A DNA stretch of 64,000 nt from Blastocladiella emersonii ATCC 22665 (lineage: Eukaryota > Fungi > Blastocladiomycota), in contig JANHCV010000013.1 of NCBI GenBank assembly GCA_025594325.1, forward strand, positions 434,001 to 498,000, in the 5' to 3' direction. The translations under genes and the position numbers were made by a program. This document shows positions 14,822 through 33,745 of the stretch, piece after piece (positions within the stretch are counted from its first letter, which is position 1; every line of letters begins with the position of its first letter). The notes under the pieces are model-generated. The model saw only the letters and a program-made list of their open reading frames with translations. It ran no database searches and was not told where the DNA came from.

Positions 14822-15055
14822 GGTGCATAGACGCGGAGGTTGATGACTCGGTTGCATGGAGTGATTCATGAAGGTGGTGAGTTATGTTGCATGGGAGCGG
14901 GGGGAGAGGACGTTGATGCGAGGGGCTGGTGGGAAAGCAGGCGTTTTGCGGCGTGGCGCCACACGTGCCACGTTGCTATGGGTGGCATTGAACCCGCCAC
15001 ATGTTGTTGGCTTGCCCTCTCTCCACGCTCGCATGTACACCTCGATATGAAGCCC

Positions 15056-15070
15056 ATGAACCGGAAGCTG
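15056..15070 (+). pseudogene. 5' stub (MNRKL) of the host gene interrupted by the virus
   Basis: ATG AAC CGG AAG CTG joins in frame to CCG CAG CTG CCG ATT GAG (33746 onward) when the element and one AGCTG are removed. Confidence 0.8.
15066..15070 (+). other. Left target-site duplication AGCTG
   Basis: Identical AGCTG at 33741-33745; both abut the TIR ends. Confidence 0.92.
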
Positions 15071-15096
15071 TGCCGTATCCCTTAAGGGATACGGCA
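15071..15096. repeat. Perfect 26-bp terminal palindrome TGCCGTATCCCTTAAGGGATACGGCA
   Basis: Self-reverse-complementary. The arm GGGATACGGCA recurs at 15227-15237. Confidence 0.98.
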
Positions 15097-15542
15097 TGGG
15101 CTGACCCACCACCACCCAGGCTGACCAATTGCTTACCCCAAGCGGTTGGCGGCAGTCACTCGGGCTAACCACGTGATTGGCAATGCGTTACCCCGAGTAA
15201 TATATTGAGATTTGCCAAATGCCCCAGGGATACGGCACGGGGGCGGGTGGCGGGTGGGTCACGTGGATCACGTGCAGATGAATGGCGCATGGGCACGGCT
15301 GCGAGTCAATCTGTGAGACAAGTCCAAGAGCAGATCCCTGAGCCCGTCCCTGACCAACCGCTCGGGCTGACCATTGCTTACCCCGAGCGGTCGGCGGCAG
15401 CTGGCAAGCGCAGCGAGACGAAGAGCAGCGCAGCTGCGGCTACCCACTGACAGAGTTCCATGGTCTGGTCCCTGACCTGACCCCCAAGCCCATCCCCGAC
15501 CACCTGCCGCAAGCGGCTGCTATGAAGCCACTCACCGTAAAG

Positions 15543-15612
15543 GTTCCACTTTCATGGCATATTACGACAGAGTATATATATACACTACCCTTTTTTGCCA
15601 TGAAAGTGGAAC
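15543..15612. promoter_or_regulatory. 17-bp inverted repeat flanking a 36-bp AT-rich spacer (candidate replication origin)
   Basis: GTTCCACTTTCATGGCA (15543-15559) and TGCCATGAAAGTGGAAC (15596-15612), with a spacer containing AGTATATATATACAC. Mirrored at 33199-33268. The structure is observed; the function is inferred. Confidence 0.55.
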
Positions 15613-16237
15613 TTTCAAAGACAAGAGGTCAGGGTACAGGGGGGGGGGAAGGTTGAGGACAAGGGAGCGTCTTAGCAGCATCAATGTATTGGGCAGGACA
15701 GGGGTCAGGGCAAGGGAGCGTCTTAGCAGGCAGCGTCTTAGCAGGCAGGAAGGCAGCGTGGCAGGTCGTGGAGTGTCTTAGAGCTCGTTGTTGTCCAGCT
15801 CGAGGACAAAGGTCAGGGACTGCTACGGGGTGGTCGTCCAGCTTGCCCAGTGAGCCGCGTGGCTGGTGAACTGACCAACCGCGTGGCTGGGGAATTAGCG
15901 CTATCCCTTGCCCTATAAGAACCCCCCACTGCCCCCCTCCCCAGACCTGCTCTCCACCACCCACAACAGAAGCCATGACACAGATTCACTGCCTCAAGCC
16001 CCTGCTGAGCGCGTATAGGCCATCTTGCTGCAATGAGCCCAACGCACTCACAGGACTTTTGGTATGGGTGTCATGGCCAACGTTGTGGGTGGTCAAAGTG
16101 TACGGCACAAGACGTACAGGGCTATCTGCTGTGCACGGCAATAGACTCGGTTGCTTGTGTCAGGACATGGAGCGCTGCGTGGACTTGCTACCCGTGCAGT
16201 TGCACCATGGACCTTTCTTCCTTTATCCTGTTGGCGC

Positions 16238-16592
16238 TGTGTGGTCAATGAGCTTTGGTCTGTGCTGGTGTCCTGGTGTGGTCGATGCGCTTTGGTCTGT
16301 GTGGGTGTGCTGTGTGGTCGATGAGCTTTGGTCTGTGCTGGTGTCCTGGTGTGGTTGATGAGCTTTGGTCTGTGTTGGTGTCCTGGTGTCCTGGTGTCCT
16401 GGTGTCCTGGTGTCCTGGTGTGCTGGTGTACTGTGTGGTCAATGAGCTTTGGTCTGTGCTGGTGTACTGTGTGGTCGATGAGCTTTGGTCTGTGCCAGTG
16501 TACTGTGTGGTTGATGAGCTTTGGTCTGTGCCAGTGTACTGTGTGGTTGATGAGCTTTGGTCTGTGCTGGTGTACTGTGTGGTCGATGAGTA
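16238..16592. repeat. About 9 copies of a 36-bp tandem repeat with a nested 9-bp GTGTCCTG(G) sub-array
   Basis: Unit ~CTGTGTGGTCGATGAGCTTTGGTCTGTGCTGGTGTA; TCCTGGTG-type short repeats at about 16378-16420. Confidence 0.92.
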
Positions 16593-17264
16593 CTTGGCGA
16601 TGATGCCCTGCTCCACACTGGAACTTTGATTAGTGGTTGGCCACCATGAAAGGAGACTCCAGTGTGGGGCAGTCTGGGGGCTGCCTGGCCAGCAGCTCCT
16701 GGACGGGGGCGGAGCACCCATTGCTACGTTATGTCATTGCAGGGGCTGTGGTCACGTGACCAGTTGCCATGGACTGTTTGGTGGTGATGATGGAAGCGCG
16801 TTCAACGCACAAGTCTTTGACTTCTTCTCTGAACCTTCAGTAACCCATGCGCGGCTGCATCCTTGACATCACTCCCCTGCCTCAGCCGCCGTGCAACCAC
16901 TTGGAGCCACCTTGGTGGGTCTATGACAACTGGCTCCTGCTGGCCACGGTAGTTTACCCATGCTGTTGTCACACGTACACTGACTGCTATCATGGCTACA
17001 CCAGTGACAGCAACCAGTGAGAGTCTTCAAGGTAGCATTCACTGTTAACTTGAAGGGGCGCTTACTCAAAGCGCACAGCGTACACGACTTTGACACCGGG
17101 TGGACTTGCGTCTCAGATGGCCGTGTACTGGCTCAGGGACTTTGGCCCTGGTGTGGTTGGAGAAGGTGTACGGGGTGGTGACAAAGTGCAGCCAGTAGCC
17201 TGGTTCATGGTGTTGTCTCTTACTACGTTGTCGGGAAAATAAACACATTGCGCTGACGCGTTGC

Positions 17265-17375
17265 TTAGTCTACGGCGCGAATATCTTTGAGCGCGCTGGA
17301 GGTGTACCCAATGATGGCAAGGTTGGCCACAAGGCTGACCACGTTGGCTGCAAGGACAAGTGTCTCAAGGATCAT
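17265..17375 (-). CDS. Viral 36-aa hydrophobic micro-protein (not in the ORF track)
   Basis: MILETLVLAANVVSLVANLAIIGYTSSALKDIRAVD*. It directly follows the penton gene and is preceded by the conserved intergenic T-tract. Confidence 0.55.
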   Translation of the reverse strand: MILETLVLAANVVSLVANLAIIGYTSSALKDIRAVD

Positions 17376-17405
17376 TTTACATGTACACAGCAAAAAAGTC
17401 GCAGC

Positions 17406-18152
17406 TCAGATGAACGCGAGCTCGATGTAGAAGGGTTGCCCCAGGAAGTCAACAGAGCGCAGGTTCTCGTCCACCACGTCAACGTCAATGGAGTCTATCA
17501 GCTGCAGTGTGCCTCGCGCGTCAAAGCGAAAGTAGTCGCTCATGTGTGGCCCGTGCTCGAACCAGCTCCCAAACGGCTGTGTGACATGGATACTGCACAG
17601 CACACCATTATCCTGCGGGTACGCCGAGAACATGTTGTCTGCAAGGCGGCTGCCCAGGTTGCACGAGTACACATGCAGCAGGTTGATGGGAGAGATGTTC
17701 ACCAGAGACGTCCCGTACTGGACCTTGCTGTAGCTGTAGCTGCTGACAAAGCCCATGTGCGTGTTCAGCGCAGCGGCCCCTGTCCCAACAGTGAAGTTGC
17801 AGGTGTCATTGGCAATGCGCATCTTCTGTGTGGTGGAGTCAACCTGCACGTCCCATGTGCCCTGCCACAGAAGACTTGACGGCGCGTTGTTGAGCAGGCT
17901 CTTGAGCGTTGACATGAACGTCTCAACTGTGTAGTTGCCGTCAGGGACAGTGATGGTCCCTGGGAAGGTCACACTGCCACGGCTCTGTGTCAGGTACACC
18001 TTGTTGGCCTTGGAGTTGACTGTGTGCCAGCTGTTACAGAGGTACGCTGAGTTGACCTTGACGCCGCTCACAGACACAGCCCGCGGGAGGTACAGCACAC
18101 CGTTCTTGAGGTCGCGGCTGCAGATGGTCAGTGTCTTGTAGGAGCCAGTCAT
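17406..18152 (-). CDS. Minor capsid protein (penton, single jelly-roll), PLV type
   Basis: TLTICSRD…, NSWHTVN…ITVPDGNYT…LKSLLN, INLLHVYS and IDVDVVDENLRSVDFLGQPFYIEL follow the PLV/Polinton penton pattern; close to the MCP gene. Confidence 0.85.
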   Translation of the reverse strand: MTGSYKTLTICSRDLKNGVLYLPRAVSVSGVKVNSAYLCNSWHTVNSKANKVYLTQSRGSVTFPGTITVPDGNYTVETFMSTLKSLLNNAPSSLLWQGTWDVQVDSTTQKMRIANDTCNFTVGTGAAALNTHMGFVSSYSYSKVQYGTSLVNISPINLLHVYSCNLGSRLADNMFSAYPQDNGVLCSIHVTQPFGSWFEHGPHMSDYFRFDARGTLQLIDSIDVDVVDENLRSVDFLGQPFYIELAFI

Positions 18153-18173
18153 TTAAGTAAGGCTTAGAAGATA

Positions 18174-18440
18174 TTATTGCACTGCCGTGCCTGTGTCATT
18201 GTCGTCTGTCTCAAAGATCTCACTTGTTGGCCGGTTGTACCATGTGTGGATGTCCTGGGCCAGGTCAGTGCCCTTGGACACGAGCTGTGCCACAGACGAC
18301 ACGGCAGGGTTGTGTGAGCGCTCAAAGAACTTGGACACGGTCTTGACTCCCTTGAGCATGGTGGGGAGATGCTTGTTCACAAAGCCACCTACTTGGCCAA
18401 GCACGTTGCTGAAGTTGGTCCACAGGTTCCTGAAGATCAT
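18174..18440 (-). CDS. Viral 88-aa protein with predicted amphipathic N-terminal helix
   Basis: MIFRNLWTNFSNVLGQVGGFVNKHL…; fills the gap between MCP and penton; preceded by the conserved motif. Confidence 0.75.
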   Translation of the reverse strand: MIFRNLWTNFSNVLGQVGGFVNKHLPTMLKGVKTVSKFFERSHNPAVSSVAQLVSKGTDLAQDIHTWYNRPTSEIFETDDNDTGTAVQ

Positions 18441-18479
18441 TGCGTTTAACTGTACGCAAGAAAAGAATGCACGTGGGGC

Positions 18480-19700
18480 TTACTTGTAGAGGTTGACCTC
18501 GCCGGTTGGGAGAAACTCGTACACAATGTCAACACCAACAAAGGCGTCAACACGCTGGTTTGGGACAGTGCTTGAGGTGAGGATGATCTGCATGTCCACG
18601 GCCTGGCTCTTGCAAGACTTGTCGCCGCTGACAATGGTACGGGATGACTCGAGGTTGCGGCCAATGCAGAAGGTCCCCTCAGCTGGCGCATTGTACTTGT
18701 CCACTGACATGCCTGCACCAATGACATGGCCATGGAAGGCGTTGGACAGCTCTACAAAGGCCTCTGAAGCGTAGTTGTCACAGCGGACAGGCTTCTGGGG
18801 GAAGAGACAGCCACTTATGCTGAACTGGTACGTTGCAATGGTCTTGGCACGGAGGAACGAGTCCTTGGCATTGTCATTGAGCACTGCGTTGTCGCGGAAC
18901 GACACCAGCACGTCCTTTTGTGACGCACTGCGGTCAGAGACGTTGAGCGTAGAGTTGGGCACCGAGTAGTTGAGGAAGTGGTGGTTGTACGTTGTGCCGT
19001 AGAGCTTGAGACCCTGCTTCTTGAAGGCAGCGTCCATGACGGCGATCTGCTGGTCATTGAGCTTGATCAGGTCAGACACAATGCACACGTCCTTGACACT
19101 GTAGCTTGGGATGGCATTGTTCTTGACCACACAGGCATCTGCACCAGGAGCCAGGGTGAACTCGACGCAGATACCACCAAGGTACTTCATGGGCAGATGC
19201 TTCTGGTTGGACAGCAGTGCAGACTTGATGGGCAGCATGTACCGGTGAAGTCCAGATGACACAGCAAAGCGGTCAGCCCCAGTGGCAAAGTAACCCTGGG
19301 CCACGCCGAGGCATGAGTCCTTGAGGTGCTGCGGGACAGTCACGTCAGCCTCAATGCGCTGACGCAGGTTGTAGTAGGGAAGCTCTTCAAGCAGGGCTCC
19401 ACCCGCGCTGTAGACTCGCACACGGTCAATGATGCTGAAGATGCTATCACAGAAGGCGACGTTGGCGTCTGCAGTCTTGGCACTGAACTGCAGGAACGTG
19501 CAGTGGGTGTCCATCATGTCATTGCGCGGGGGCAGGAGGACACTGATAGTGTTGCCAGGTGCAAACTCAGGGCCGCCCTGTGCAGTGAACTGGACAGTCT
19601 GACGCTCGGCATACACAGACTCCTTGGGCAGGTTAAACGTCATCTCTGGCGGCAGAGTCTTTGACAGGACCTGGGAGAACTGGGCATTGGTGGAAGACAT
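18480..19700 (-). CDS. Major capsid protein (double jelly-roll), PLV type, about 406 aa
   Basis: EFAPGNTISVLLP…MDTHCTFLQF…SIIDRVRVYSAGGALLEELPYYN and C-terminal FCIGRNLE…SG…VDAFVGVDIVY. Likely start MSSTNAQF at 19700. Confidence 0.88.
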   Translation of the reverse strand: MSSTNAQFSQVLSKTLPPEMTFNLPKESVYAERQTVQFTAQGGPEFAPGNTISVLLPPRNDMMDTHCTFLQFSAKTADANVAFCDSIFSIIDRVRVYSAGGALLEELPYYNLRQRIEADVTVPQHLKDSCLGVAQGYFATGADRFAVSSGLHRYMLPIKSALLSNQKHLPMKYLGGICVEFTLAPGADACVVKNNAIPSYSVKDVCIVSDLIKLNDQQIAVMDAAFKKQGLKLYGTTYNHHFLNYSVPNSTLNVSDRSASQKDVLVSFRDNAVLNDNAKDSFLRAKTIATYQFSISGCLFPQKPVRCDNYASEAFVELSNAFHGHVIGAGMSVDKYNAPAEGTFCIGRNLESSRTIVSGDKSCKSQAVDMQIILTSSTVPNQRVDAFVGVDIVYEFLPTGEVNLYK

Positions 19701-19743
19701 GGCGTGTGTTACTGAAGCACAAGAAAAAAAGTCGCTGCGTCGC

Positions 19744-20544
19744 TTAGTCCTTGATGATCCACTCACTGAAGCTGTCTACCAGCCTGTACTTGGGACTGTT
19801 CTGGTTGTTGACACCAAGGAAGCGTTGCTTGGTGTTGCCCTCTGAGCGGGTGTCAAAGAGCTGCTCAATGATCACCTCAAACTCCTTGAGCGAGAACTGC
19901 GACCCGATCTCCTTGTGCAGTGTCTTGACCTCTGTCTTGTCATAGATGGGGTACACAACGCTGTAGCTGCAGTTGATGCGCAGTGTCTTGGGCAGAGCAC
20001 ACCAGCGCTGCACGCCAATGATGCAGCTGATCTTGAGGTGTCGCGAGTTGCACAGGAAGTTGGTCAGCGTCTTGTGGGACAGCAGCTTGAGGCCCAGCAC
20101 GTCGTCAATGATCAGCAGCTGGTCCTGCAGTGCCTTCTTTCCCTGGTCTTCAAAGGTCTTGGTCAGGTCTTTGCGCATCTTGAGCAGCGTGGGGATGAAC
20201 AGCTCTGGGTCCGTGACAATGCACAATGGCTTCACCTTGAGCTGGTTTGGGTTGTGCTCCTGTGGATCAAGTACATTGTGCTGCTTCTTGGGTGGTCGCA
20301 GGATCGCCTGTGAGGCAATGTACTCGTACTTGTCATCAGCGTGGAAGGTGGGGTTGAAGACCCAGATGTTGTCAAAGCGTCCCTTGTAGAACTGCGGGAA
20401 GCACACAAGGTTGGCAATCAGTGTTGACTTGCCCTGACCCTTGGCGCCAATGACGTTCATGGTGAAGGGGTGCTTGGGGATGGGCGAAGGCTGGTTGTTG
20501 TTGTTCCTGGTGAAGCCGTTGTCAATGGCCACAATGTTGTACAT
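19744..20544 (-). CDS. A32/FtsK-HerA-family DNA packaging ATPase
   Basis: Walker A VIGAKGQGKST, Walker B LLIIDD, RHLKIS…VQ…LPKTLRIN. Likely start MYNIVAID at 20544. Confidence 0.93.
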   Translation of the reverse strand: MYNIVAIDNGFTRNNNNQPSPIPKHPFTMNVIGAKGQGKSTLIANLVCFPQFYKGRFDNIWVFNPTFHADDKYEYIASQAILRPPKKQHNVLDPQEHNPNQLKVKPLCIVTDPELFIPTLLKMRKDLTKTFEDQGKKALQDQLLIIDDVLGLKLLSHKTLTNFLCNSRHLKISCIIGVQRWCALPKTLRINCSYSVVYPIYDKTEVKTLHKEIGSQFSLKEFEVIIEQLFDTRSEGNTKQRFLGVNNQNSPKYRLVDSFSEWIIKD

Positions 20545-20569
20545 CTTACTGTACCCCAAGACAAAAGGT

Positions 20570-22288
20570 TCACGCCCATCCAAGGTCAGTGACAATGCCA
20601 CTGCGCTTGGGGACTTCGCGCACTTGCTTGACTGGTCGCTCAGGGAGCTTCTGGTGACGCTTGATCTGGGGTGCTGTCAGGCCACTGCCAGCCGACGTCT
20701 TCTCTGTGAACAGCTTCGCGTCCAGGGGCTTCTTGTAGCCCAGTTGCTTGAGGATCTGTTCGAGTAACATCTCTGTCTTCTTACTACTACCCTCGGAATT
20801 GTTCTTGGGCGCGTCTGCAAGCTGTCGGATGAGCTGCTCCAGGTTGCTGGTGTCCAGGACCTGTGGCTGTGCTGGCGGCTGCATTGTGTCCAGCTTGCTG
20901 CCCAGGTCCTGGAGTGTCTTGTTCACAGCAGCATTGGACTCTGTCTGTCCCTGGATGGCGCTCTGGACACCTGTTGCAAGCTGGCCAATGAGTCCCTGCT
21001 GGTTGGTCAGGGCAGTTGACATGCCGCTTGCAATCTCAGACACCAGTGCACGGTTCCCTGCGTCAATCTGTCGCACAAAGGCGTTGCGCTCTGCACGCAG
21101 TGTGTCCACAATGTTAGCTGCAAGGTTGGCAAAGGTCTCAAGTGCCAGTCCTTGGGCGTTCTTGGACTGCTCAATCAGGGCCATGTACGCCTGGTACTGC
21201 ATGACCTGACTGTTCGCAAACTGGCCAGCAATGACGTCCAGCGCAGCCATCACGCTGGGGTCGCTGTTGTACTGCACCATGATCTGTGTACGCAGGTCAT
21301 TGTTCTGCTGGTAGCAGTTCTGCTCGTACTGTGTGATGTACTGCCGCATGTCGTAGTTCTGCGTGTTGTCCTGCTGGAAGCTGCTGTAGACGTATTGATT
21401 GAACTGCTGAAAGTTCTGGACAATGTCGACCTCCATGTTGTCTGTTGTGGTCAGTGCCTGCTCTGGGTTGTAGACCTGGATGTCCTTGGAGCCTTCAATC
21501 ATCCGAGACTTGTTCATGGTGGGATGTACGTGTGTGTCATTGTACACAGAGCCGCGCTGTGGAAAGTCCTGTCTGTAGCTGGGAGGGACAACAACCAGGT
21601 TGCATGTGCCATCGTCGAGCCGGGGTGGAAGGTCATTGCCGCCGTTGTTGTCATTCTGGATCAAGTAACATCCAGGGATCATGCCAGCGTACTCTGGGAT
21701 GTCCTGGCCAACGTAGTCACCAGCGTCCACAGGGTACTCTTCAGGGACAACTGGGCGGACAGGTACGGGCAAGAGATGGTCAGGCACACGCTGCCCTGCT
21801 GTCTCAAGCATCTCAGCAAGTTTGTCCAAGGTGTCCTGTGGCCTCTGTGAGCCTATGCCAGAGTCTTGTGTGCTTAGGACGTCTGGTGTGTCTGCGCCTG
21901 TGTCAGAGTCTGGCGTGCCTTCCTGTGCAACAGGAACACGTTGGATGCCACTGCTAACGCTTGTGCTTGCTTGCTTGATGGTGTCATAGACGTGCTGCAT
22001 GACGCTCTCTGAGTCTTGCCCCATGATCTCTCCATTGTGTCTCAGGAACAGCATCCCTGATTGCTTGCCCTCAAAGTCGTCTGCATAGCTCTCTGGTGTG
22101 ACAGCGTAGTCAAAGGCAAGGATGTACGGGACCCACACAGTGAGGAACTCCTTGGCTGTGGGGAAAGTGTACGCGCGTTCATCAATGGTGGCCTTGATCC
22201 TCTGGCCAGGCATGCGCTCTGCAGTGATATGACTGTTTGTCTTGGCTGCAACGTCTTCCAGTTGCTTGGTGATGGGTCTTCGTGTCAT
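20570..22288 (-). CDS. Viral hypothetical protein (about 572 aa), Gln/Asn-rich with coiled-coil C-terminal half
   Basis: Long ORF; likely start MTRRPITKQ at 22288 after the conserved motif. No family recognised. Confidence 0.8.
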   Translation of the reverse strand: MTRRPITKQLEDVAAKTNSHITAERMPGQRIKATIDERAYTFPTAKEFLTVWVPYILAFDYAVTPESYADDFEGKQSGMLFLRHNGEIMGQDSESVMQHVYDTIKQASTSVSSGIQRVPVAQEGTPDSDTGADTPDVLSTQDSGIGSQRPQDTLDKLAEMLETAGQRVPDHLLPVPVRPVVPEEYPVDAGDYVGQDIPEYAGMIPGCYLIQNDNNGGNDLPPRLDDGTCNLVVVPPSYRQDFPQRGSVYNDTHVHPTMNKSRMIEGSKDIQVYNPEQALTTTDNMEVDIVQNFQQFNQYVYSSFQQDNTQNYDMRQYITQYEQNCYQQNNDLRTQIMVQYNSDPSVMAALDVIAGQFANSQVMQYQAYMALIEQSKNAQGLALETFANLAANIVDTLRAERNAFVRQIDAGNRALVSEIASGMSTALTNQQGLIGQLATGVQSAIQGQTESNAAVNKTLQDLGSKLDTMQPPAQPQVLDTSNLEQLIRQLADAPKNNSEGSSKKTEMLLEQILKQLGYKKPLDAKLFTEKTSAGSGLTAPQIKRHQKLPERPVKQVREVPKRSGIVTDLGWA

Positions 22289-22326
22289 GGTGGTTACTGT
22301 ATGAAGCGAAAATAAACCCTGGGCAA

Positions 22327-22469
22327 GGTACACTTTGCACCTGTCTGTGGTACACTTTGCACCGTCAAGGGTACACTTTGCACCTGTCTGTGGTACACTT
22401 TGTACCGTCAAGGGTACACTTTGCACCTGTCTGTGGTACACTTTGTACCGTCAAGGGTACACTTTGTAC
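22327..22469. repeat. 7 copies of GGTACACTTTGYAC with alternating 22/21-bp spacing (43-bp higher-order unit)
   Basis: Copies at 22327, 22349, 22370, 22392, 22413, 22435 and 22456; linkers alternate CTGTCTGT and CGTCAAG. Confidence 0.93.
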
Positions 22470-22680
22470 GTTGTGCATTGCGCTTGGCGTTGAGTGCCTT
22501 GTAGATGCGGATCTTGACGCGCTCTGCCCGTGCTGCCTCACTGTCAACGTGGACAAAGCGACTGGCCTTGCAGTCCCTCTTCTGTAGCCACTTGGCCTTG
22601 TCCTTGTCGCTCTTGTTGTACCAGTTGGATGGCACAGGGAACGTCCCTGCAAGGTGTTCACGCCACTCATCAAGGGACAT
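22408..22680 (-). CDS. Small basic viral hypothetical protein (about 90 aa)
   Basis: MSLDEWREHL…KAKWLQKR…RIYKALNAKR; the C-terminus runs into the repeat array; start codon uncertain. Confidence 0.45.
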   Translation of the reverse strand: MSLDEWREHLAGTFPVPSNWYNKSDKDKAKWLQKRDCKASRFVHVDSEAARAERVKIRIYKALNAKRNAQRTKCTLDGTKCTTDRCKVYP

Positions 22681-22723
22681 GTCCTGGTACTCTGAGCAAT
22701 TCATTTCTTGCACTAAGTTAAAC

Positions 22724-24580
22724 ATGGTCAAGAATATATTCAACGTGTCTACCAACGTGTCACCAACAGTGTCGGCCACAGGTGTCTCAGACGTGTCCAA
22801 GGCATATGTTGATGCTGCCATCAGTGCTGTCTATGCCACAGTTGGTGCACCTGTCGCTGGGCCTGGACTCAGCGTGTCAGGGACAACTGTCTCTGCCAAG
22901 GTCAATGACCAGACACTGGGTGTTGGTCCAAGCGGTCTCTATGTCAAGTCAATCAGTACGGCCCAGCTCCTGCCAGCCAGCGTCACAGCAGACAAGCTTG
23001 TGAGTGTCACAGCTGCACAGGTCACAGGTAAGCTTGTTGATGCACAGCTGGACACTGTGTCAGCATCCAAGGTCACTGGTGTGCTCAGTGCGTCCAGCCT
23101 TCCTGTGCTTGGGACAGCGTCCATTGCAGATGGCTCTGTGACAGACGCCAAGGTTGCCTCAGTGTCTGGGTCCAAGCTGGTTCCAGGAAGTGTCTCAACA
23201 CCTGCTCTTGCAGACGCCTCAGTGACAGACGCCAAGGTTGCGTCTGTGTCCGGGTCCAAGCTGGTTCCAGGGACTGTCAGCACAGCAGCACTTGCAGACA
23301 CCGCAATAACAGATGTCAAGGTTGCCTCAGTGTCTGGGTCCAAGCTGGTTCCAGGGACTGTCAGCACAGCTGCCCTTGCAGACGCTGCTGTCACCAACGC
23401 CAAGCTGGCCACTGGTATAGACGGTGCAAAGCTCAACGTGTCATCTGTGGGAACAGCACACCTTGCAGCAGGGTCAGTCACCAATGCCAAGGTCACAGAT
23501 GTGTCTGCCACCAGGCTGACAGGGACGCTTGATCCTGCACGCATTGCAGACAGTTCACTGACCAATGCCAAGCTGGCCACTGGGATAGACGCTGCCAAGT
23601 TGTCTGGGACCATTGACCTTGCACGACTGCCTGACGTGTCCAGCAAGGTGTCAAGTGTCAACGGAGCCATTGTCACTGGGACGCTCCCCCAGTCCACCCT
23701 TGGACTTGGCAGTGTCTTTACCTTTGCCAGTACTGTGGACAGCACATCAACGTCCACTGGGGCAGTCACTGTGGCAGGTGGCCTTGGTGTGGGCAAGCAG
23801 CTCACTGTGCCAAACGTCCTTGTCCGGAACACAGTCAGTGCAAATGTGGTCTTTGACTCTGCTGCCAACACACTCACATACATTGACTTCAAGCAAGCAG
23901 GTGTCCTGAAGAGCAACCTGGCATGCACTGCACTGGGCACCATTGAGATTGCTTCAGCAACCAATGGTGGTGTGTCCTTGGCTGCAGGTGGCGGCAACGT
24001 GGTTGTGGGCTCGGCGACGCTTGGCACAGAAAAGCTCCGTGTCAATGGCACTGGTCGCTTCACAGGGCAGCTCACCCTTGACCTCGCTCCAGTGGCAGGC
24101 ACTGACGCAGCAAACAAGGCGTACGTTGACTCGCGGTCTGGCATGACCCGGTACGTCGCTCAGGCTGAGCACCGCTCTACAAACGGAGTGACCACAGGTG
24201 GCAAGATCATTGGCAGCACAGCATCGACGGGCCCGGCCACCTTTGCGTTCCAGTCCACGGCAGGCGCGTTCACGTCTGTGATCAATGGATGTGTCAAACC
24301 CCCTGTCAGTGGCTACTACCTCGTCCATGCAAAGGGCTATTACGCAAACGGCACGCTCCCTGGAGCCCACACTGTGAACTTTGCGCTGTACAATATGACG
24401 GACATGATTGCAGTGTCACTTGTCACCGGGTGCCGCGCTGAAGGCAACGTCCAGTTCCTTCAGTTCTTGAGCATTGAGTACCTTGACGCGGCCAAGAGCT
24501 ACTCTTTCATCTGGATCCCGTCGGTCGCAGTTGCCAACAACTGCCAGGTCATCATTCAAAGCCACTGGACCCTGCTCTAA
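22724..24580 (+). CDS. Fibre/spike-like virion protein (about 618 aa) with phage-tail-fibre-type repeats and a putative C1q/TNF-like head
   Basis: 28-aa repeats ADASVTDAKVASVSGSKLVPG.VST.AL (84-bp DNA period), VTNAKLATGID.AKL, DAANKAYVD and C-terminal PVSGYYLV. Start MVKNIFNV at 22724. Confidence 0.75.
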   Translation: MVKNIFNVSTNVSPTVSATGVSDVSKAYVDAAISAVYATVGAPVAGPGLSVSGTTVSAKVNDQTLGVGPSGLYVKSISTAQLLPASVTADKLVSVTAAQVTGKLVDAQLDTVSASKVTGVLSASSLPVLGTASIADGSVTDAKVASVSGSKLVPGSVSTPALADASVTDAKVASVSGSKLVPGTVSTAALADTAITDVKVASVSGSKLVPGTVSTAALADAAVTNAKLATGIDGAKLNVSSVGTAHLAAGSVTNAKVTDVSATRLTGTLDPARIADSSLTNAKLATGIDAAKLSGTIDLARLPDVSSKVSSVNGAIVTGTLPQSTLGLGSVFTFASTVDSTSTSTGAVTVAGGLGVGKQLTVPNVLVRNTVSANVVFDSAANTLTYIDFKQAGVLKSNLACTALGTIEIASATNGGVSLAAGGGNVVVGSATLGTEKLRVNGTGRFTGQLTLDLAPVAGTDAANKAYVDSRSGMTRYVAQAEHRSTNGVTTGGKIIGSTASTGPATFAFQSTAGAFTSVINGCVKPPVSGYYLVHAKGYYANGTLPGAHTVNFALYNMTDMIAVSLVTGCRAEGNVQFLQFLSIEYLDAAKSYSFIWIPSVAVANNCQVIIQSHWTLL

Positions 24581-25689
24581 AGCCCGCGGTCCCACTTTTC
24601 TTGGACTCGGACTGGGACGCGCCTGACCTGGGTCGAGGGCTCCCTTGGCATGACCGGGGTGCGCGCAGCAGGGAGCCTTGGGAGACTTGGACCTACGCGC
24701 TGCCTTGTTGGCGGGTCCTGGGTCGCTGTGACTGGCTGGACGTCGCTGCGTGGATAGAAGCCCTTCAAGTCACCAACCTTGTACAATGGGTTGCTCACAC
24801 TAGAGCCCTTGCGGACAGCTGTGACTTGGTGCACTGTGGACGTCCATACTGGCTTTCCCTTTGCTTCCATGGCTGTCTTGTACGGCTCACGGACACGTAC
24901 CTGTGTTCCAACTTTGAGCAGCGCACTGAGTGGGTCACCCTCTGGCTTGCCCTTGGCAGCACGGATGGCCTTGAGTGTGTCCTTGGCAGCGTCTTGCGGC
25001 ATGTCATGGAAGTCATTGGGCGCCTTGCCTGTAGCTCTGGACTTGCTGCTGTTGATCACGGACTCTATGGTCTCAAGGTGCTTTGGCCAGTTGTTGTTGC
25101 CTTCAATGGACAGCCACGGTGTCAGCATCCTGCAAATGGTCCCGTTCATACGCTCAACTACTCCCTGACTGTATGGCACACCTGCCTTGCCTTTGATGTG
25201 CTTTGCGCCTGTCCCCGCTTCAATGCCATTGAACTCTGTGCCATTGTCTGTCTGGATGGTTGCTGGTGTCAGGTTGTGCTTGGAGACAACGTCGTCCCAT
25301 GCCTGCCGTGTCAGGTCCTTGGTCTTGACTGGACGCAGGAACACGCGTCGAGTTGCCAAGTCTACACAGGTAAGAATGTACCTGAACCCGTTGAAGGTAC
25401 CTTTCTTGCCCATGTCTATGAGGTCCAGCTGCCAGTTGCAGCCAGGACTGGTGGACACAATGCTTTGGATGTTGCGCCGCTTCTGTGGTGCACACTTGTA
25501 CTGCTGCCACACAGACTGCTCATTGAGCCACCTCTCCAGCTGTGCGCGGTACACGTGGTCACCAGTGTTCTCTCTGGACACAATGTCAAAGAGCCAACAG
25601 ATACCAACACCAACATTGCCGCGCTTGTAGTACAAGTCTGTCAGGAACGCTTGCTGTGCGTCTGTGAGTGGTGCTTTGTGTGGATACAT
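24577..25689 (-). CDS. Retroviral-like (rve, DDE) integrase of Polinton type
   Basis: WQLDLIDM…LTCVDLATR, IQTDNGTEF and PYSQGVVERMN give a D-D-E triad. Polinton-type C-terminus VGTQVRV…KGKPVWT…YKV.D.KGFYPRSDVQPV. Its stop overlaps the fibre stop (CTAA). Confidence 0.93.
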   Translation of the reverse strand: MYPHKAPLTDAQQAFLTDLYYKRGNVGVGICWLFDIVSRENTGDHVYRAQLERWLNEQSVWQQYKCAPQKRRNIQSIVSTSPGCNWQLDLIDMGKKGTFNGFRYILTCVDLATRRVFLRPVKTKDLTRQAWDDVVSKHNLTPATIQTDNGTEFNGIEAGTGAKHIKGKAGVPYSQGVVERMNGTICRMLTPWLSIEGNNNWPKHLETIESVINSSKSRATGKAPNDFHDMPQDAAKDTLKAIRAAKGKPEGDPLSALLKVGTQVRVREPYKTAMEAKGKPVWTSTVHQVTAVRKGSSVSNPLYKVGDLKGFYPRSDVQPVTATQDPPTRQRVGPSLPRLPAARTPVMPREPSTQVRRVPVRVQEKWDRGL

Positions 25690-25712
25690 TACATTACGGC
25701 AACAAAACAAGG

Positions 25713-26654
25713 TCAGACAAGGTAGTGGGCCACGGCGACAGGTACGCTGTGACCCATCTCAGCAGCACGCTTGGCCACGGCCTCATACGCGTCCTTGTTC
25801 TCACTGGTGCTGATGCGGCGGATCTGCTGGACACCGCACCCCTTGAAGCCAACGTCCTGTGCTGCCAGCGCAATGGTCTTGGACCAGTCTTTGCGGACCT
25901 TGGCGTTGACCTGAGCATCACAGACGTTGTCCAGGCTGTGGTTGTAGAAGACCAGGTCATGGCCATCAGCAAGACGCTTGGCAATGATGCGCTCAAGGGC
26001 TGCAGCAACCTTGGGGTCAGCAATGACATGCGAGAACCCGTAGCCACGGCCATCTGTCTTGACGCACACAGGGCCGGCCAGCGTCTTGGTCTCGGGGTTG
26101 TAGCTTGGGTACTTGTCACTGGGCTTGGTGGTCAGGAACGCAAGGTCACTGCGGGTTGCACAGACGACTTGGAGGTACAGACGCAGAGCACGCATTGTGC
26201 CAGACACCTGGTATGTGTCCCAGTTCTCAGCAGCAACAACAGCAGCCAGCAAGTCTTCACGGCTTGGGAGTGCACCAGTCTCCACAGCCTTGCGCGCGTC
26301 AAGGTGAGCTTCAGCGTCCTGCTTCTTGGCCTGCGTGTACTGTGCAGCAAGGTTGTTGTTGCCATTCCACTTGCAGTACTTGGCCAGCGCCTTGAGCGTC
26401 TCAACCTGCAGACCCTGTGCCTTGTCTGTGCCCTTGGTTGCACGGTACGTCTCCACAGCCTTTGTCATACTGTTGACGTCCTCAATGGCCAGCCCCGACT
26501 TGCAGAACGCAGTCAGCACGCAACACAGCTTGGACTGGTCATCGGCACTGAGCTGGGACACTTGGCCGTACTTGTTCACCACAGGCTCACTGGCACACGC
26601 CTTGATGGATTCCTCGGTCATCTGCGCGTACTTGACCTGGGGATCAGTGTCCAT
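25713..26654 (-). CDS. Tyrosine recombinase-like protein (about 313 aa)
   Basis: Putative catalytic set: R (ATRSDL), K (CVKTDG), QQIRR at the HxxR position, and terminal MGHS…AHY. The ORF stays open upstream to a GTG at 26714. Confidence 0.72.
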   Translation of the reverse strand: MDTDPQVKYAQMTEESIKACASEPVVNKYGQVSQLSADDQSKLCCVLTAFCKSGLAIEDVNSMTKAVETYRATKGTDKAQGLQVETLKALAKYCKWNGNNNLAAQYTQAKKQDAEAHLDARKAVETGALPSREDLLAAVVAAENWDTYQVSGTMRALRLYLQVVCATRSDLAFLTTKPSDKYPSYNPETKTLAGPVCVKTDGRGYGFSHVIADPKVAAALERIIAKRLADGHDLVFYNHSLDNVCDAQVNAKVRKDWSKTIALAAQDVGFKGCGVQQIRRISTSENKDAYEAVAKRAAEMGHSVPVAVAHYLV

Positions 26655-26984
26655 GGGCTCGCCAGACTCGTTGGCGGGGGTGTCATCGGAACTGTGATTG
26701 CAGTCACGTGACACTGCAGCCAGCGCGGCGAGGCTGGTCTCGATTTGCCGTCACACAGCCTTTGGCTGGCACCGGCGCAGGGCTTTGCCCTCTCGCCCTT
26801 GCCCAGACTTGCGCCGCGCACGCTCTCGCACTCCCTGACCAAATCGTGCAACTCGCCCGCCTCCCAGCATGCATGCGGACGCTTGCCGACCCTGCGCTCC
26901 GGGCACGGTGATGTTCAGGTTGCGCATGATGGCGAGGTCGATGAAAAATTTTTTTTTAAGGCGGCCAGCGTCGCTTCGTCGAGT

Positions 26985-27850
26985 TGATTATCAGCGCCGC
27001 TTTGTTGGGTTGAAGTTCAACGTCGCCTTGTTGTGTTGATGACCAGCGTCGATTGATGACCAGCGTCGACTTGTCGGGTCAATGATCAGCGCCGCCTTGT
27101 TGGGTTGACAATGAGCATCGCCTTGTTGCGTTGATGTCCAGCGTTGCCTTGTTCAGTTGGAGTTCAGCGTCGTCTTGTTGCGTTGAAGTTCAGCGTCGCC
27201 TTGTTGCATCAAAGCTCAGCGTCACCTCGTTGCGTTGACGACCAGCGTTGTTGCATTGACAACCAGCGTCACCTCGTTGCATTGTGATCAGCGTCGCCTT
27301 GTTGGGTCGTGATCAACGTCGCCTTGTTGCATTAATGATCAGCGTCAGCTCGTTGTGTCAATGACTAGCGTCGCCTTGTTGCGTTGATGGCGAGCGTCGC
27401 CTTGTTGCGTCAATGACCAGCGTCGCCTTGTTGCGTTGATGACCAGCGTCGCCTTGTTGCGTCAATGACCAGCGTCACCTTGTTGCGTCGATGACCAGCG
27501 TCACCTCGTTGTGTCAATGACAAGCGCTGCTTTGGTGAGTTGTTGGTCAGCGTCGCCTCGTTGAGTTCAAGTCCAACGCGTCTTTGTTGAGTTCGTGATC
27601 AGCAGCGCCTCGTTGCGTCAATGACCAGCGTCGCCTCATTGCGTTGCGTTGATGATCAGCGTTGCCTTATTGGGTTGACAATCAGCGCTGCGTTGTGTCT
27701 ACGACCAGCGTCACCTTGTTGAGTTTGTAATCAGCGTCGCCTTGTTGAGTTCGTAATCAGCGTCGCCTTGTTGCGTTCATGATCAGCGTTGCCTCGTTGC
27801 TTTCATGATCAGCGTTGCCTCGTTGCATTGATTGCCAGCGTCGCCTCGTT
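26985..27850. repeat. About 33 degenerate copies of a 26-bp tandem repeat, consensus CAGCGTCGCCTTGTTGCGTTGATGAC
   Basis: Period 26 is clear at 27421/27447/27473; no ORF of 60 aa or more lies in 26988-28053. Confidence 0.92.
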
Positions 27851-28476
27851 CCATTGCTGAGCGACGCCGCGCCACGCAACACTGATTGAAGAAGAGATGA
27901 TGATCGAGTGCTGCGCTTGAGAGTCGACAAACAAACGAGTTGAGTTAGCTCAGACTACGCTGAATTCGTCATAGCAAAACTATTGCGTTCCTGTCAAGAT
28001 TCTGCCCCAACATATGGTTGCTCATCTCTATTGCGACACGATCAAGGCAAGGATCAGGGGCTGCGACTCAACTCAGCCGCGCTGCTGCTGCTGTTGCCGC
28101 ATAACATGCTGCGCAGAGCGACAGTGACAAGGTAACACGTAAGGTGAACCGCCAACTTGGCGCGGATGCGGCTAAAGTCGCACAGCAACCAAGAAACGTC
28201 ATTGACACATGAAGAAGCAACAACAGAGTACATATTTGTTGCGGGTTGACTTTGATTCAGCGAGGGCGCGCGAGGGAGAAAGGGCGAGGGGACGCGTTCA
28301 GCCACTCACGTGACATGATGAGGCAAGCCCAAATGTGACAATCAACGCCAGACCCGGTGGCGGAGCAGGTGGTGGAGGCACGGTTGCAGATGCGGTAGGC
28401 GGAGGTGCAGGACCAGAAGGCGAAAGCGACCTGGGTGCGACTGTTGAGGACAAGGTGTTTGAAGTAAGTGCAGCGC

Positions 28477-28842
28477 TTACGTGCGCGTTGAACGGCGGCA
28501 CGCGTGTTGAAAGTTCAGCGCGGTCGTTGGATCGTTGTTGATGAGGGCGAGGCGGAGAGCTGAGAGAGAGGACGGGTCGCGCAGATCTGCGGCGGACAGC
28601 GACAGCGACGTGAGCAGTCCATGGTATGCATCAATCAGCTCATGGAGCTTCTTGCCGACAGGTTCAGGGGCGCGTGTATGAGCAGAATGCTGAGCGAGCC
28701 ATGCGGCAGCGTGTCAAGCGGCAGCAGCGCGGTGGCCGTGCGACGCGAAGGTGGCGTAGTTGCTCGAGTCGGGGCAAAGCCAGTCGACAAGGCGGTCACA
28801 CTCCTCCGCGGTCCACCTTGGCCGACTCTCGTGTTGCGGCAT
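28477..28842 (-). pseudogene. Myb/SANT-like DNA-binding protein with one in-frame stop
   Basis: MPQHESRPRWTAEECDRLVDWL…NY…AAAA*HAAAWL…R.PEPVGKKLHELIDAY; TGA at 28714-28716, and the same frame continues to TAA at 28477. Confidence 0.55.
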
Positions 28843-28933
28843 GTTACAGCCGCTCAAGTTTTCGTTTCGTGGAGGAGAAGTGGAGTGCGCAACGTCGCCT
28901 GAGCCAAAGTCGCGAGCAAGCCGCAAAACGCGT

Positions 28934-29182
28934 TCAGCCACAGTCACGTGACATGTATGACGTGATGAAACCAAGTGAAATCCGCCAAAAGCACGTGACA
29001 CAGACCGAGACTTTCGAAGGGGCCACCCAATATTTCAGGGCAAAGCCCTGCACTCCCTTGAACCGCTCATCAAAGGACGCCAGCAGCGGCTTGATACCAT
29101 CGAGCACTTGGTGCACTACGTTGGCGGTAACGTGCTGAGCAACAACCTTGGGCACCTGGGACACGAGCGCTTCGAGAGACAT
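28934..29182 (-). CDS. Small viral hypothetical protein (82 aa)
   Basis: MSLEALVSQVPKVV…; preceded by CTTCTTTTCTGGGGCTACGGTAAGATG, closely similar to the ATPase upstream motif. Confidence 0.55.
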   Translation of the reverse strand: MSLEALVSQVPKVVAQHVTANVVHQVLDGIKPLLASFDERFKGVQGFALKYWVAPSKVSVCVTCFWRISLGFITSYMSRDCG

Positions 29183-29271
29183 CTTACCGTAGCCCCAGAA
29201 AAGAAGGCGTCACTGACTCAAGTGCGTTTGGCGGTATCGTTAAATATATTGTGCGTCAATGGTAGGACACC

Positions 29272-29766
29272 ATGTACTACGACAGCGACAGCGACAGCCA
29301 TGTCCCCAACCCCCTTGATGAGTTCCTGCTTAGCATTGCTTACTGCAGAGGCAAGGTGGTTGACTTTGACAAGGTGAAGGCCTTGACCATGGACGCTGCA
29401 CGCAAGGCATGGCTGGGCAATGACAAGTCTCTGGCAGAGGCCATGAAGACGCTGCGTGTTGTTATTGCCCGTCTTGCAGTGTTGCAGCACGTCCAAGGGG
29501 CGCCTGTGAAGACACAGCAGCTGTACGACAGCACGTCAATGAAGCGGCTCCTGCCAGACATCCCCTTGAAGAAGGGTGCTCCCTCAATTGACTTTGACCA
29601 GCTTGCACAGGACTTTCCTCTGGACACGTCCGAGTGGGATGCCATCAAGGTAGAGTACCAAGACTGGCTCAAGAAGCAGTCTTCCAAGCGACTTGCCCGG
29701 CTGTGTGTGCGCCCAGAGCGGAAGCCCAAGAAGAAGGCTGAGAGCGACTCTGACCTGAGCAAGTGA
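29272..29766 (+). CDS. Viral hypothetical protein (164 aa) with basic NLS-like C-terminus
   Basis: Clean ORF with viral codon use; RPERKPKKK. Confidence 0.7.
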   Translation: MYYDSDSDSHVPNPLDEFLLSIAYCRGKVVDFDKVKALTMDAARKAWLGNDKSLAEAMKTLRVVIARLAVLQHVQGAPVKTQQLYDSTSMKRLLPDIPLKKGAPSIDFDQLAQDFPLDTSEWDAIKVEYQDWLKKQSSKRLARLCVRPERKPKKKAESDSDLSK

Positions 29767-29772
29767 ACACAC

Positions 29773-29920
29773 CAGGACGGGACAAGGACACAATGCACAG
29801 GACGGGACAAGGACACAATGCACAGGACGGGACAAGGACACAATGCACAGGACGGGACAAGGACACGATGCACAGGGCAGGCCAACCAGGACGGGACAAC
29901 GACACAGTGCACAGGACAGG
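29773..29920. repeat. 25-bp tandem repeat (CAGGACGGGACAAGGACACAATGCA), 4 copies plus a degenerate copy
   Basis: Copies at 29773, 29798, 29823 and 29848. Confidence 0.92.
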
Positions 29921-30021
29921 CCATGCCAACAAGGGCTCCCGGGGCACAGTCATTAACGCTAAATCCTGCGCGTTTAAACGCACCTGTCCTGTCACCCTTT
30001 CTGTTACCTCATCATAACAAC

Positions 30022-33000: not shown

Positions 33001-33033
33001 GAGGACAACAACGAGGACAACAACGAGCTCTAA
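30022..33033 (+). CDS. AEP primase(-polymerase) fused to a herpes UL9/origin-binding-protein-like SF2 helicase (about 1003 aa)
   Basis: AEP motifs YFDID, SWHIV and DSSVYSKHRFMKCINQSK. Helicase motifs TGMGSNKM, VVWITPRITL, VVVDKSE, FMDAF, LYHGD, ITVGVNF and FQAIYRVR. Likely start MVCNQ at 30022; the last codons lie inside the right TIR. Confidence 0.85.
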   Translation: MVCNQVPSKHGTAFGLKWFHGKDGGDSDMGPQRTLLSELQDNETVIKRLVDKGVDNHSQPKAAHYFAKVKTADLAGLLDKNCCIQEMVHPNRLSKVYFDIDCPGNRKDVTLDVIKKVILTQVPSANLQVCSYETDLKKSWHIVLSNYTATLKDMPFLKLFCSHPDHVKLGFDSSVYSKHRFMKCINQSKPKKTPSVWISGNKDRLSKHLIQCDFDPNCASVLDLSFEEVVTAKAKEARTKRHVGRLDYDLDIPEFKDVQIDPDFLYYDATPLEILHNIPISPENAFHNNVTWRIMTWAMRKGVTFDQFWAWTSQQDNSAQRMQKYWGRWNEIASNDNYQVLDTFVKAIFYKWFPAAFKSKAMAKFEQSLEVPVDVTSPNQFLSCNNITLAKFNVLATGMGSNKMGAVCDYIAKYPDAQVVWITPRITLAHNTEGRACEQKLGFVNYCSIKDKKTLGDHKRLIVSPCSLHYLTKPYNIVVVDKSETVLKMFQDAKLHTTTIRNNLEANLKAFKTLCEHKGSNGIFMDAFVTNLTMDVLRSFTVEHNIKTILHGKIKVITNTLGKNFEPHKMSLITDDKDNEKSAEDIMESNIIADLKANKKLYLFLPRPCKTSTKWSVQTFGEYLERVFAKETWKIGKQIKLYHGDRPNHEDKELIDPDSVWGDNTVRIVIANLKITVGVNFLKPYVFHKVYARYKSWVPARDFFQAIYRVRYPIDNEIVFMISHGCRGAYMNKLQVIDLDSVGKLHRAIVKNTDLENEMAAVTFCLKVFDAFRKVINIVMDNSPKYYYKAHPEIKDVMTLGWSFEWANVQLPSKEIMRAYCKGTIKDPDWTISLSVRKAFFIRKFNGLSMDNMKIIWDDNAESFMERIQHFYTKDKGHVLQKLLEHNDMDLRTSKEFNIQATIPAKFEADIHKYFKKLGYYKCDTATVLNRLLSTYFNKCLAVPDKDEPRVSVRGKKYSNLKWTDNILYFVMYETWTPPPANLAPFVLEMDEDEDNNEDNNEL

Positions 33034-33740
33034 GACACTCCACGACCTGCCACGCTGCCTTCCTGCCTGCTAAGACGCTGCCTGCTAAGACGCTCCCTTG
33101 CCCTGACCCCTGTCCTGCCCAATACATTGATGCTGCTAAGACGCTCCCTTGTCCTCAACCTTCCCCCCCCCCTGTACCCTGACCTCTTGTCTTTGAAAGT
33201 TCCACTTTCATGGCAAAAAAGGGTAGTGTATATATATACTCTGTCGTAATATGCCATGAAAGTGGAACCTTTACGGTGAGTGGCTTCATAGCAGCCGCTT
33301 GCGGCAGGTGGTCGGGGATGGGCTTGGGGGTCAGGTCAGGGACCAGACCATGGAACTCTGTCAGTGGGTAGCCGCAGCTGCGCTGCTCTTCGTCTCGCTG
33401 CGCTTGCCAGCTGCCGCCGACCGCTCGGGGTAAGCAATGGTCAGCCCGAGCGGTTGGTCAGGGACGGGCTCAGGGATCTGCTCTTGGACTTGTCTCACAG
33501 ATTGACTCGCAGCCGTGCCCATGCGCCATTCATCTGCACGTGATCCACGTGACCCACCCGCCACCCGCCCCCGTGCCGTATCCCTGGGGCATTTGGCAAA
33601 TCTCAATATATTACTCGGGGTAACGCATTGCCGATCACGTGGTTAGCCCGAGTGACTGCCGCCGACCGCTCGGGGTAAGCAATTGGTCAGCCTGGGTGGT
33701 GGTGGGTCAGCCCATGCCGTATCCCTTAAGGGATACGGCA
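33015..33740 (-). repeat. Right terminal inverted repeat (726 bp), with terminal palindrome at 33715-33740
   Basis: Reverse complement of 15071-15796 with 3 mismatches. Confidence 0.97.
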
Positions 33741-33745
33741 AGCTG
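33741..33745 (+). other. Right target-site duplication AGCTG
   Basis: Matches 15066-15070. Confidence 0.92.

Follow-up and report, generated by a model that had tools for sequence, protein, structure and literature searches.

The question raised by this locus is where, and with which protein, an integrated virus of the fungus Blastocladiella emersonii might begin to copy its DNA. The window, i.e. the whole 64,000-nucleotide stretch of B. emersonii ATCC 22665 DNA that was analysed, contains a Polinton-like virus (PLV), each TIR of which bears a 70-bp palindrome (Table 1). The initial annotation had likened this feature to HSV oriS, proposed it as the origin for a fused primase and UL9-like helicase encoded in the same element, and named a promoter as the alternative.

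The element has the hallmarks of a PLV, including TIRs with a target-site duplication, an A32 ATPase and an integrase and recombinase. Integrated PLVs with an MCP, ATPase, helicase, TIRs and 5-7-bp duplications have been described in Spizellomyces and Allomyces (Bellas and Sommaruga 2021, PMC7805220), and the present element shares with these zoosporic-fungal PLVs its ATPase, helicase, TIRs and duplication and, probably, its MCP; cis-elements are not described in the relevant passages of that report, which is extended here by the palindromic ends and by the palindrome in the TIRs. The 406-aa putative capsid ORF matches no Pfam family, and its product clusters with proteins of ~444 aa from 14 environmental loci. 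None of the 13 element ORFs scanned gave a polymerase match, and no unassigned ORF is long enough for one; as no protein-primed PolB was found, the element is not a Polinton/Maverick in the strict sense. A host ORF, perhaps encoding an F-box/ankyrin protein, is interrupted by it after codon 8, with the halves at 15047-15070 and 33746-34144. An rve integrase and a tyrosine recombinase are both encoded (24577-26654), and another residue stands in place of the first His of the recombinase HxxR motif, both in the window copy and in all five homologues that cover the motif. Besides the 26-bp array, the ~31 copies of which could be iterons or an enhancer, there are non-coding tandem arrays with units of 36 bp (16237-16590), 21/43 bp (22327-22466) and 25 bp (29773-29923); a host-side array (148-359) has 29-34-bp units with internal palindromes.

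Table 1. Features of the integrated element and its palindromes, in window positions.
Feature	Position	Strand	Remark
70-bp palindrome, left TIR	15543..15612	.	candidate origin or loading site
70-bp palindrome, right TIR	33199..33268	.	mirror of left copy
12-bp TATA-run palindrome on dyad	15572..15583	.	without variants among sister copies
Integrated Polinton-like virus, 18,670 bp, ends TG...CA	15071..33740	.	
Left TIR, 726 bp	15071..15796	.	3 mismatches to right TIR
Right TIR, 726 bp	33015..33740	.	contains last 19 nt of helicase gene
Target-site duplication, 5 bp	15066..15070	+	second copy 33741-33745
Terminal palindrome, perfect, 26 bp, ending in CA	15071..15096 and 33715-33740	.	
AEP primase - UL9-type SF2 helicase - C-terminal domain, 1003 aa	30022..33033	+	stop inside right TIR
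Tyrosine-recombinase-fold protein, 313 aa	25713..26654	-	model pLDDT 64.5
rve-type integrase, 370 aa	24577..25689	-	PF00665 E 2.2e-7, slightly short of curated cut-off
A32-type packaging ATPase	19744..20544	-	PF04665 E 9.4e-13
Probable major capsid protein, 406 aa	18480..19700	-	from size, position and clustering
Probable minor capsid protein	17406..18152	-	from position only; no family match
Fibre-like repeat protein	22505..24580	+	
26-bp tandem array, ~31 copies	26965..27850	.	largest non-coding gap

The initial description of two inverted 17-bp boxes around a 36-bp AT-rich spacer in both TIRs proved exact, both in its coordinates and with respect to the mirror copy. In the left TIR, the arms (15543-15559 and 15596-15612) are exact reverse complements, and the spacer, which is centred on TATATATATA, is 72% A+T compared with 42% for the whole TIR, of which it is the most A+T-rich 36-mer. 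If one mismatch is allowed, the arms reach 15540-15615 (76 bp). The TATA run forms the middle of a 12-bp perfect palindrome whose centre coincides exactly with the dyad of the 70-mer, and the feature is thus better viewed as one imperfect palindrome of 70-76 bp. Its arms are the longest among perfect inverted repeats with a spacer of up to 100 bp in the 64-kb window, the next best being 14 bp; none of 5000 Markov simulations of the TIR yielded such an inverted repeat, and the DNA fold of the palindrome strand has a z-score of -8.75, with none of 200 shuffles as stable. The right-TIR copy (imperfect-palindrome score 36.6) starts 166 bp beyond the stop codon of the primase-helicase gene. Between the two TIRs there are 3 mismatches in 726 positions, all of them outside the palindrome, and owing to this near-identity the presence of the palindrome in both counts as one observation, not two. 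An Rfam search gave only matches to miRNA hairpins, far under their cut-offs. The sole TATAA of the element lies elsewhere, at 15914 (region 15887-15944), 60 nt before an ORF at 15975-16358; it is flanked symmetrically by a 7-bp inverted repeat, the left side of which resembles the environmental arm consensus described below, and the right side of the region is variable in sister copies.

The protein encoded next to the right-TIR palindrome had been read as an AEP primase joined to an SF2 helicase of the UL9 type, and this reading holds: ORF 30022-33033 is real, and profile and fold matches agree. A profile of 125 family members matches HSV-1 OBP/UL9 with an E-value of 6.5e-34 over OBP residues 87-415, i.e. 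the helicase region, and human PrimPol with an E-value of 2e-4 over the N-terminus. PF02399 scores above its cut-off in all five fungal homologues tested, and the 1003-aa protein of the window itself has no Pfam match. With the protein model (pLDDT 74), OBP supplied the top four Foldseek matches and the top match of a wide fold search (Z 22.2, rmsd 4.6, 381 residues aligned; next Z 18.4), and in a second-look fold list DEAD-box helicases tied with OBP. The nearest named homologues are from B. emersonii itself (7 of 12 matches, 57-91%), Allomyces and Geranomyces, and from other chytrids. The AEP-SF2 fusion is shared with mimivirus R8, ASFV pF1055L, mriyaviruses and ostreid herpesvirus (PMC11253617), in the relevant passages of which paper a cognate origin is not mentioned, and fold matches in BFVD include giant-virus AEP-SF2 proteins; unlike those giant-virus carriers, the family considered here is carried by virophages and PLVs with sizes of 15-25 kb, and it occurs in zoosporic fungi.

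Similarity to UL9 does not continue past the helicase region, ending near residue 791, apart from one fold row that extends to residue 988 at an rmsd of 23.4. UL9 recognises its boxes via a SAP-like subdomain and an RVKNL motif (PMC12543377; PMC13483431). RVKNL is absent from the window protein, with no R-x-K-x-hydrophobic match past residue 740; a profile of the C-terminal domain found no UL9 chain and the SAP-like DNA-binding subdomain was not detected. The C-terminal domain had no matches in PDB sequences, Pfam, the Atlas or the wide fold search, which does not imply a different fold; the idea that this domain is common to SF3 proteins was dropped after testing. The Walker A Thr (93% conserved) is Met in the window copy and the Walker B Glu (98%) is Lys, such that the helicase of the integrated copy is predicted to be inactive and its palindrome would need protein from another copy. 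CpG stands at 0.68 in the element versus 1.24-1.28 in the flanks, with a TG/CA excess of 1.5; this CpG loss and TG/CA excess, in a host rich in CpG, give the element the appearance of methylated, decaying DNA, and the CpG depletion and the Walker substitutions together lead us to read the integrated copy as decaying.

Sister copies of the TIR, from short contigs of one sample (4 runs) aligned to 15490-15670, bear on whether the palindrome's symmetry is kept. On one contig that spans both arms, a run of five adjacent changes (15553-15557) has its mirror image in five changes at 15598-15602. In a second variant, changes at 15550 and 15605 mirror each other, on separate contigs with depths of 484/486 and 18.0/17.8. 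The 12-bp centre is invariant, and the spacer flanks vary at many positions. A single contig of low depth (X4 record 28, depth 5.4) runs contrary to the pattern, with a change at 15550 that lacks its mirror such that the right arm is broken, and in another variant the whole 82 bp is replaced by sequence that is only partly visible. Apart from that low-depth contig and the replaced stretch, symmetry is kept in the sister TIRs. The five adjacent mirrored changes may reflect one template-switch event rather than selection; as template switching can make mirrored blocks, the sister variation shows that symmetry is kept, not why.

More distant members of the helicase family, which comprises 1964 representatives, were used to ask whether the layout recurs. 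Two sub-alignments led to 45 and 79 IMG/VR loci, of which 77 were analysed, one per contig and excluding 8 contigs with short or weak helicase matches. Control viruses were gathered by their ATPase or capsid gene: 88 of 155 loci were of at least 9 kb, the 67 shorter ones being left out. Removal of near-duplicates left 63 loci in each set. Neither the capsid protein nor the fungal helicase alignment, when used as an IMG/VR query, retrieved a relative. The IMG/VR set includes virophages with Sputnik-type capsids and PLVs, with a strict inverted repeat at the helicase gene in 19/25 and 7/14, respectively. Strict repeats within 600 bp of the gene occur at 54 of 134 helicase flanks versus 32 of 686 flanks of other ORFs, or 1.23 versus 0.20 per intergenic kb; these counts, like the others given here, are patterns and not independent trials, because the loci share ancestry and p-values would overstate them.

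When centred on their dyads, the palindromes of the relatives are ~70-76 bp long with a TATA-type centre, often CTATAAG or CTTATAAG, and their arms consist of alternating GC blocks and A/T tracts ~9-10 bp apart, often starting AAAAGTGG. Each locus has 1-5 dispersed copies in both orientations, with 2-5 in many viruses. Relative to the helicase gene, 27 copies lie 36-491 bp upstream of the start and 32 lie 24-498 bp after the stop, many of the latter starting less than 50 bp from it, and some relatives have copies on both sides. Of the 47 UL9-type loci that are visible in full, eight lack a palindrome scoring 24 adjoining the gene. Strong palindromes are present in four of five metagenome loci held out from training, and in a distant SF2-type relative (L137) palindromes occur in a ~700-bp TIR abutting the helicase gene. 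Loci with more similar helicases also have more similar arms (rho 0.52, 39 loci), the standardised coefficient being 0.49 versus 0.19 for sharing the same capsid type, and a PLV/virophage pair with 71% helicase identity has 81% arm identity. With the C-terminal domain the arms show no closer covariation (rho 0.44) than they do with the primase domain (0.53). Seven of the virophages (L105, L110, L111, L118, L119, L120 and L123) have two tandem major-capsid-like genes.

The palindrome layout thus recurs beside the helicase family, and it is rare beside other genes. In the control set, strict repeats occur at 4/14 UL9-type flanks, compared with 3/53 flanks of SF3 helicase genes (among which L195, L206 and L209, whose match to the helicase query is to its primase part, were counted), 4/74 of recombinase, 3/71 and 1/56 of capsid and 3/98 of ATPase genes. 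A looser palindrome score (at least 24) is reached at 60/110 UL9-type, 20/53 SF3 and 12/114 other flanks; among these high-scoring palindromes, the combination of a 60-90-bp length and a TATA dyad, the class into which the window palindrome (76 bp, TATA dyad) falls, is found in 43/60 (43/110 flanks) and 2/20 (2/53 flanks) of the UL9-type and SF3 cases, respectively. The SF3-side palindromes, a candidate origin class, are 100-140 bp long with short tandem repeats in their arms (e.g. L206, L207, L231 and L253). With an arm matrix built leaving each cluster out, scores of at least 20 occur at 36/110 UL9-type, 2/53 SF3 and 1/251 other flanks, and the arm consensus holds across helicase clusters of less than 45% identity. 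Genome-wide, matrix scores above 22 occur in 3/9 UL9-type, 1/27 SF3 and 0/27 other loci; as only three of the nine UL9-type controls pass, two thirds carry arms of other sequence.

Near-sisters that differ in their helicase were also compared. L190 and its sisters L189 and L195 have ATPases of 97.5 and 92.6% identity, and L141 and L171 have ATPases of 88% and recombinases of 78% identity; in each case the helicase differs and the palindrome differs with it, L171 having none, such that in both comparisons the palindrome occurs only with the UL9-type gene. The PLV ATPase tree requires at least four changes of helicase type. L176 combines an SF3 helicase with a canonical palindrome, 5.3 kb of its contig lying outside the analysed part. 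In L279 and L280 the palindrome resembles that of the UL9-type locus L291 and no such helicase was seen, their records being 43% and 70% complete and hence uninformative on the pairing.

What connects the fungal palindrome with the environmental class is geometry and position, because the window arms fail the environmental matrix (score -33, rank 13,106 of 18,586; a second scheme gave 5.7, the background level). When rescored post hoc against the element's own composition, the two TIR palindromes come top in the 18.7 kb, 6 bp off the dyad. In size, TATA dyad, block pattern and location 166 bp past the helicase stop the window site agrees with the environmental class, of which we infer that it is a diverged member. 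A search with the outer 9-bp arm pattern returned 22 viral loci; none encodes a relative of the element's proteins, and they were rejected as relatives and treated as chance.

The family-wide pairing of palindrome and helicase gene in distant relatives indicates that the palindrome is likely a start site for DNA copying, and we assign a rough probability of 0.6 to its being a replication origin or loading site of the primase-helicase. Of the original origin proposal, the recurrent pairing, the kept symmetry and the protein domains speak for the assignment; the origin function itself is inferred, and the helicase of this copy, being predicted dead, would not act on it. Two copies of the primase-helicase would engage the symmetric arms, either in duplex form, in the manner of UL9 and its boxes, or as an extruded stem of the kind proposed for pRN1, with roughly even odds between the two. 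The TATA-rich dyad would then melt, the helicase unwind and the AEP domain prime; as no polymerase gene was found, extension would fall to a host or helper-virus polymerase. Arm binding, dyad melting and priming are all proposed steps.

HSV oriS lies in an inverted repeat. Its inverted UL9 boxes surround an AT-rich spacer (PMC12543377), and the window palindrome is like that of HSV-1 in having inverted boxes with such a spacer, in its inverted-repeat location and in its association with a UL9-family SF2 helicase; the outer arm equals Box 1 (GTTCGCAC) minus one base, in the HSV orientation. The arms are, however, 17-20 bp long (~28 bp in relatives) and not 8 bp as the HSV boxes are, and none of the three HSV 8-mers (Box 1, GTTCGCAC, Box 2 and Box 3) occurs in either TIR. 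With respect to the third box of oriS, which pairs with Box 1 in the oriS* hairpin, there is no third 17-bp box; a 7-bp stem with a 3-nt loop (15601-15617) overlaps the right arm. Unlike HSV UL9, the protein has its own AEP primase, lacks RVKNL and a detectable SAP-like subdomain, and belongs to a virus without a polymerase gene. Membership of the herpes oriS/UL9 system, which the comparison with oriS had implied, is therefore not upheld, given the lack of an HSV box in the TIR, the absent RVKNL and UL9 similarity that ends at the helicase region.

An equally close analogue is the stem-loop origin of the archaeal plasmid pRN1, although the pRN1 helicase is a hexameric SF3 enzyme and that considered here is of the SF2 type. 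The pRN1 origin has a 21-nt stem and a 58-nt loop, lies 54 bp after the primase-helicase gene and is required for replication; its shape, not its sequence, is conserved across relatives, and a change restoring symmetry rescued replication (PMC4234260). The palindrome likewise combines a long stem and a large loop and closely follows the 3' end of a primase-helicase gene, and its shape is kept while the arms diverge, as judged by the mirrored changes (the one low-depth contig excepted) and constant geometry. It differs from the pRN1 origin, as described in that paper, the loop of which is without a TATA dyad and which is present as a single copy on a circle, in having that dyad, in lying in TIRs or as 1-5 dispersed copies and in having an arm consensus. 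If the origin reading is correct, as we think somewhat more probable than not, the palindrome would work like oriS or the pRN1 origin, and be a member of neither group. For PLVs, Barth et al. (2024) have proposed inverted repeats as origins for the adjacent primase-helicase and exchange of replicon modules (PMC11296320). The relevant passages of that paper define no sequence element, and its main text does not contain the terms 'palindrom', 'SF2' or 'UL9'; what is added here is a defined 60-90-bp element that goes with a single helicase family and that most SF3 sisters lack. In the main texts searched we found no description of a TATA-centred palindrome class; supplements may list such repeats.

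A transcriptional role, be it as a two-way TATA promoter or as an operator for the primase-helicase or another viral protein, is an unlikely alternative that has several points in its favour: the dyad is a TATA run, as are the CTATAAG and related centres of the relatives, 27 copies precede the helicase start, covariation with the helicase is expected of an operator bound by it no less than of an origin, and the 2-5 dispersed copies in many viruses also fit an operator or a small mobile repeat. A promoter sits poorly with the arrangement of the window, where the capsid cluster and the helicase gene point toward the TIRs and both palindromes lie downstream of genes, as do the 32 copies found after the helicase stop in the relatives. 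By type of gap, 20 of the 84 classifiable copies are convergent (i.e. between two 3' ends), 10 divergent and 54 tandem (background 35/30/122), with 10 at locus edges and only 3/97 within ORFs; occurrence in convergent and divergent gaps alike argues against both promoter and terminator. Moreover, a separate T-tract...CAGTAA motif lies 1-8 nt upstream of the ATG in five element genes (18464, 19727, 20566, 22312 and 29202, minus strand); this motif, defined post hoc, is present at 5/5 sites and absent from 45 kb of host DNA. The promoter alternative is thus disfavoured by gap placement and by a separate start-proximal motif. The T-tract...CAGTAA motif might function as an initiator or in late promoters, or else as the acceptor site at which a shared leader is spliced on. 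Mimivirus and Sputnik have hairpin terminators, and a palindrome acting as an RNA hairpin that ends or processes transcripts would explain the stable stem, the downstream location of both window copies and the many copies less than 50 bp from the helicase stop; against this, which we regard as the least probable of the alternatives, there are equal numbers of copies upstream of the gene and the 10 in divergent gaps, the loop is 11-36 nt long with a conserved TATA centre, and such palindromes are rare at capsid and ATPase genes.

Two further readings dispense with a role in gene expression. That the palindrome is a small selfish or passively copied repeat, made symmetric by template switching or gene conversion and riding with the helicase gene, would account for the 1-5 dispersed copies per locus in both orientations and for the block of five mirrored changes, which fits a single conversion event; we hold it to be more improbable than a transcriptional role, since size, TATA dyad and arm consensus are constant across the diverged helicase clusters, the palindrome is lost in near-sisters with a swapped helicase, and so few copies lie within ORFs. 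Less probable again is a target of the tyrosine recombinase, for excision, dimer resolution or hairpin formation. The sites of such enzymes usually have spacers of 6-8 bp, and the 11-36 bp found here are longer. The element does encode a recombinase-fold protein, copies flank the helicase gene on either side in some relatives, and PLV inverted repeats have been proposed as a recombination substrate as well as an origin (Barth et al., PMC11296320). Yet a palindrome is present at the helicase gene in 30/36 loci in which no recombinase was seen and in 16/27 with one (the loci being partial), recombinase flanks have few strict repeats (4/74), L171 lacks the site despite a recombinase 78% identical to that of L141, and the perfect 26-bp end palindrome is the better candidate for a recombinase target.

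Returning to the origin reading, an origin ~500 bp inside each end would need an end-completion step. The 26-bp end palindrome, which none of 5000 simulations reproduced and which a sister copy shares with a different flank, might represent either a hairpin end that has been opened or an end that primes itself. Among viral contigs with this or a related helicase, perfect head-to-head dimers over the whole visible length were found for L031/L083 (centre 3211 of L031), L137 (16104) and L299 (G003, centre 17327); together with the end palindromes they hint at hairpin ends, although dimers can be amplification artefacts. Phage N15 has hairpin ends. It also encodes an SF2 primase-helicase (PMC4889955). 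The model of the recombinase (pLDDT 64.5) matches Xer with Z 9.2 (rmsd 11.9, 197 residues aligned), tied with topoisomerase IB, and TelK with a lower Z of 5.3 (rmsd 4.4, 143 aligned); among the sister-contig joints listed, there is no strand-switch joint at the element end.

These considerations lead to a wider model, which is tentative and to which we give rather less than even odds. Virophages and PLVs would carry replicon cassettes, in which a TATA palindrome of 60-90 bp serves the AEP-UL9 helicases and iteron palindromes of 100-140 bp serve the SF3 helicases, with origin and helicase moving jointly between unrelated capsid lineages. The fungal palindrome would be a diverged member which, with the 26-bp ends, forms a polymerase-free, hairpin-ended linear replicon, and a minimal, precursor-like version of the oriS/UL9 arrangement.

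For virophages and PLVs without a protein-primed polymerase, the only proposal that we found for how replication starts is that of inverted repeats as origins (PMC11296320). With a defined 70-bp element and one protein, the origin idea becomes testable with two components, and the palindrome class provides a sequence-level handle on the swapping of replicons between capsid lineages. It also provides a candidate target class for the UL9-like primase-helicases of giant viruses, i.e. those of the mimivirus R8 and ASFV pF1055L type, and bears on the origin of the herpes oriS/UL9 arrangement.
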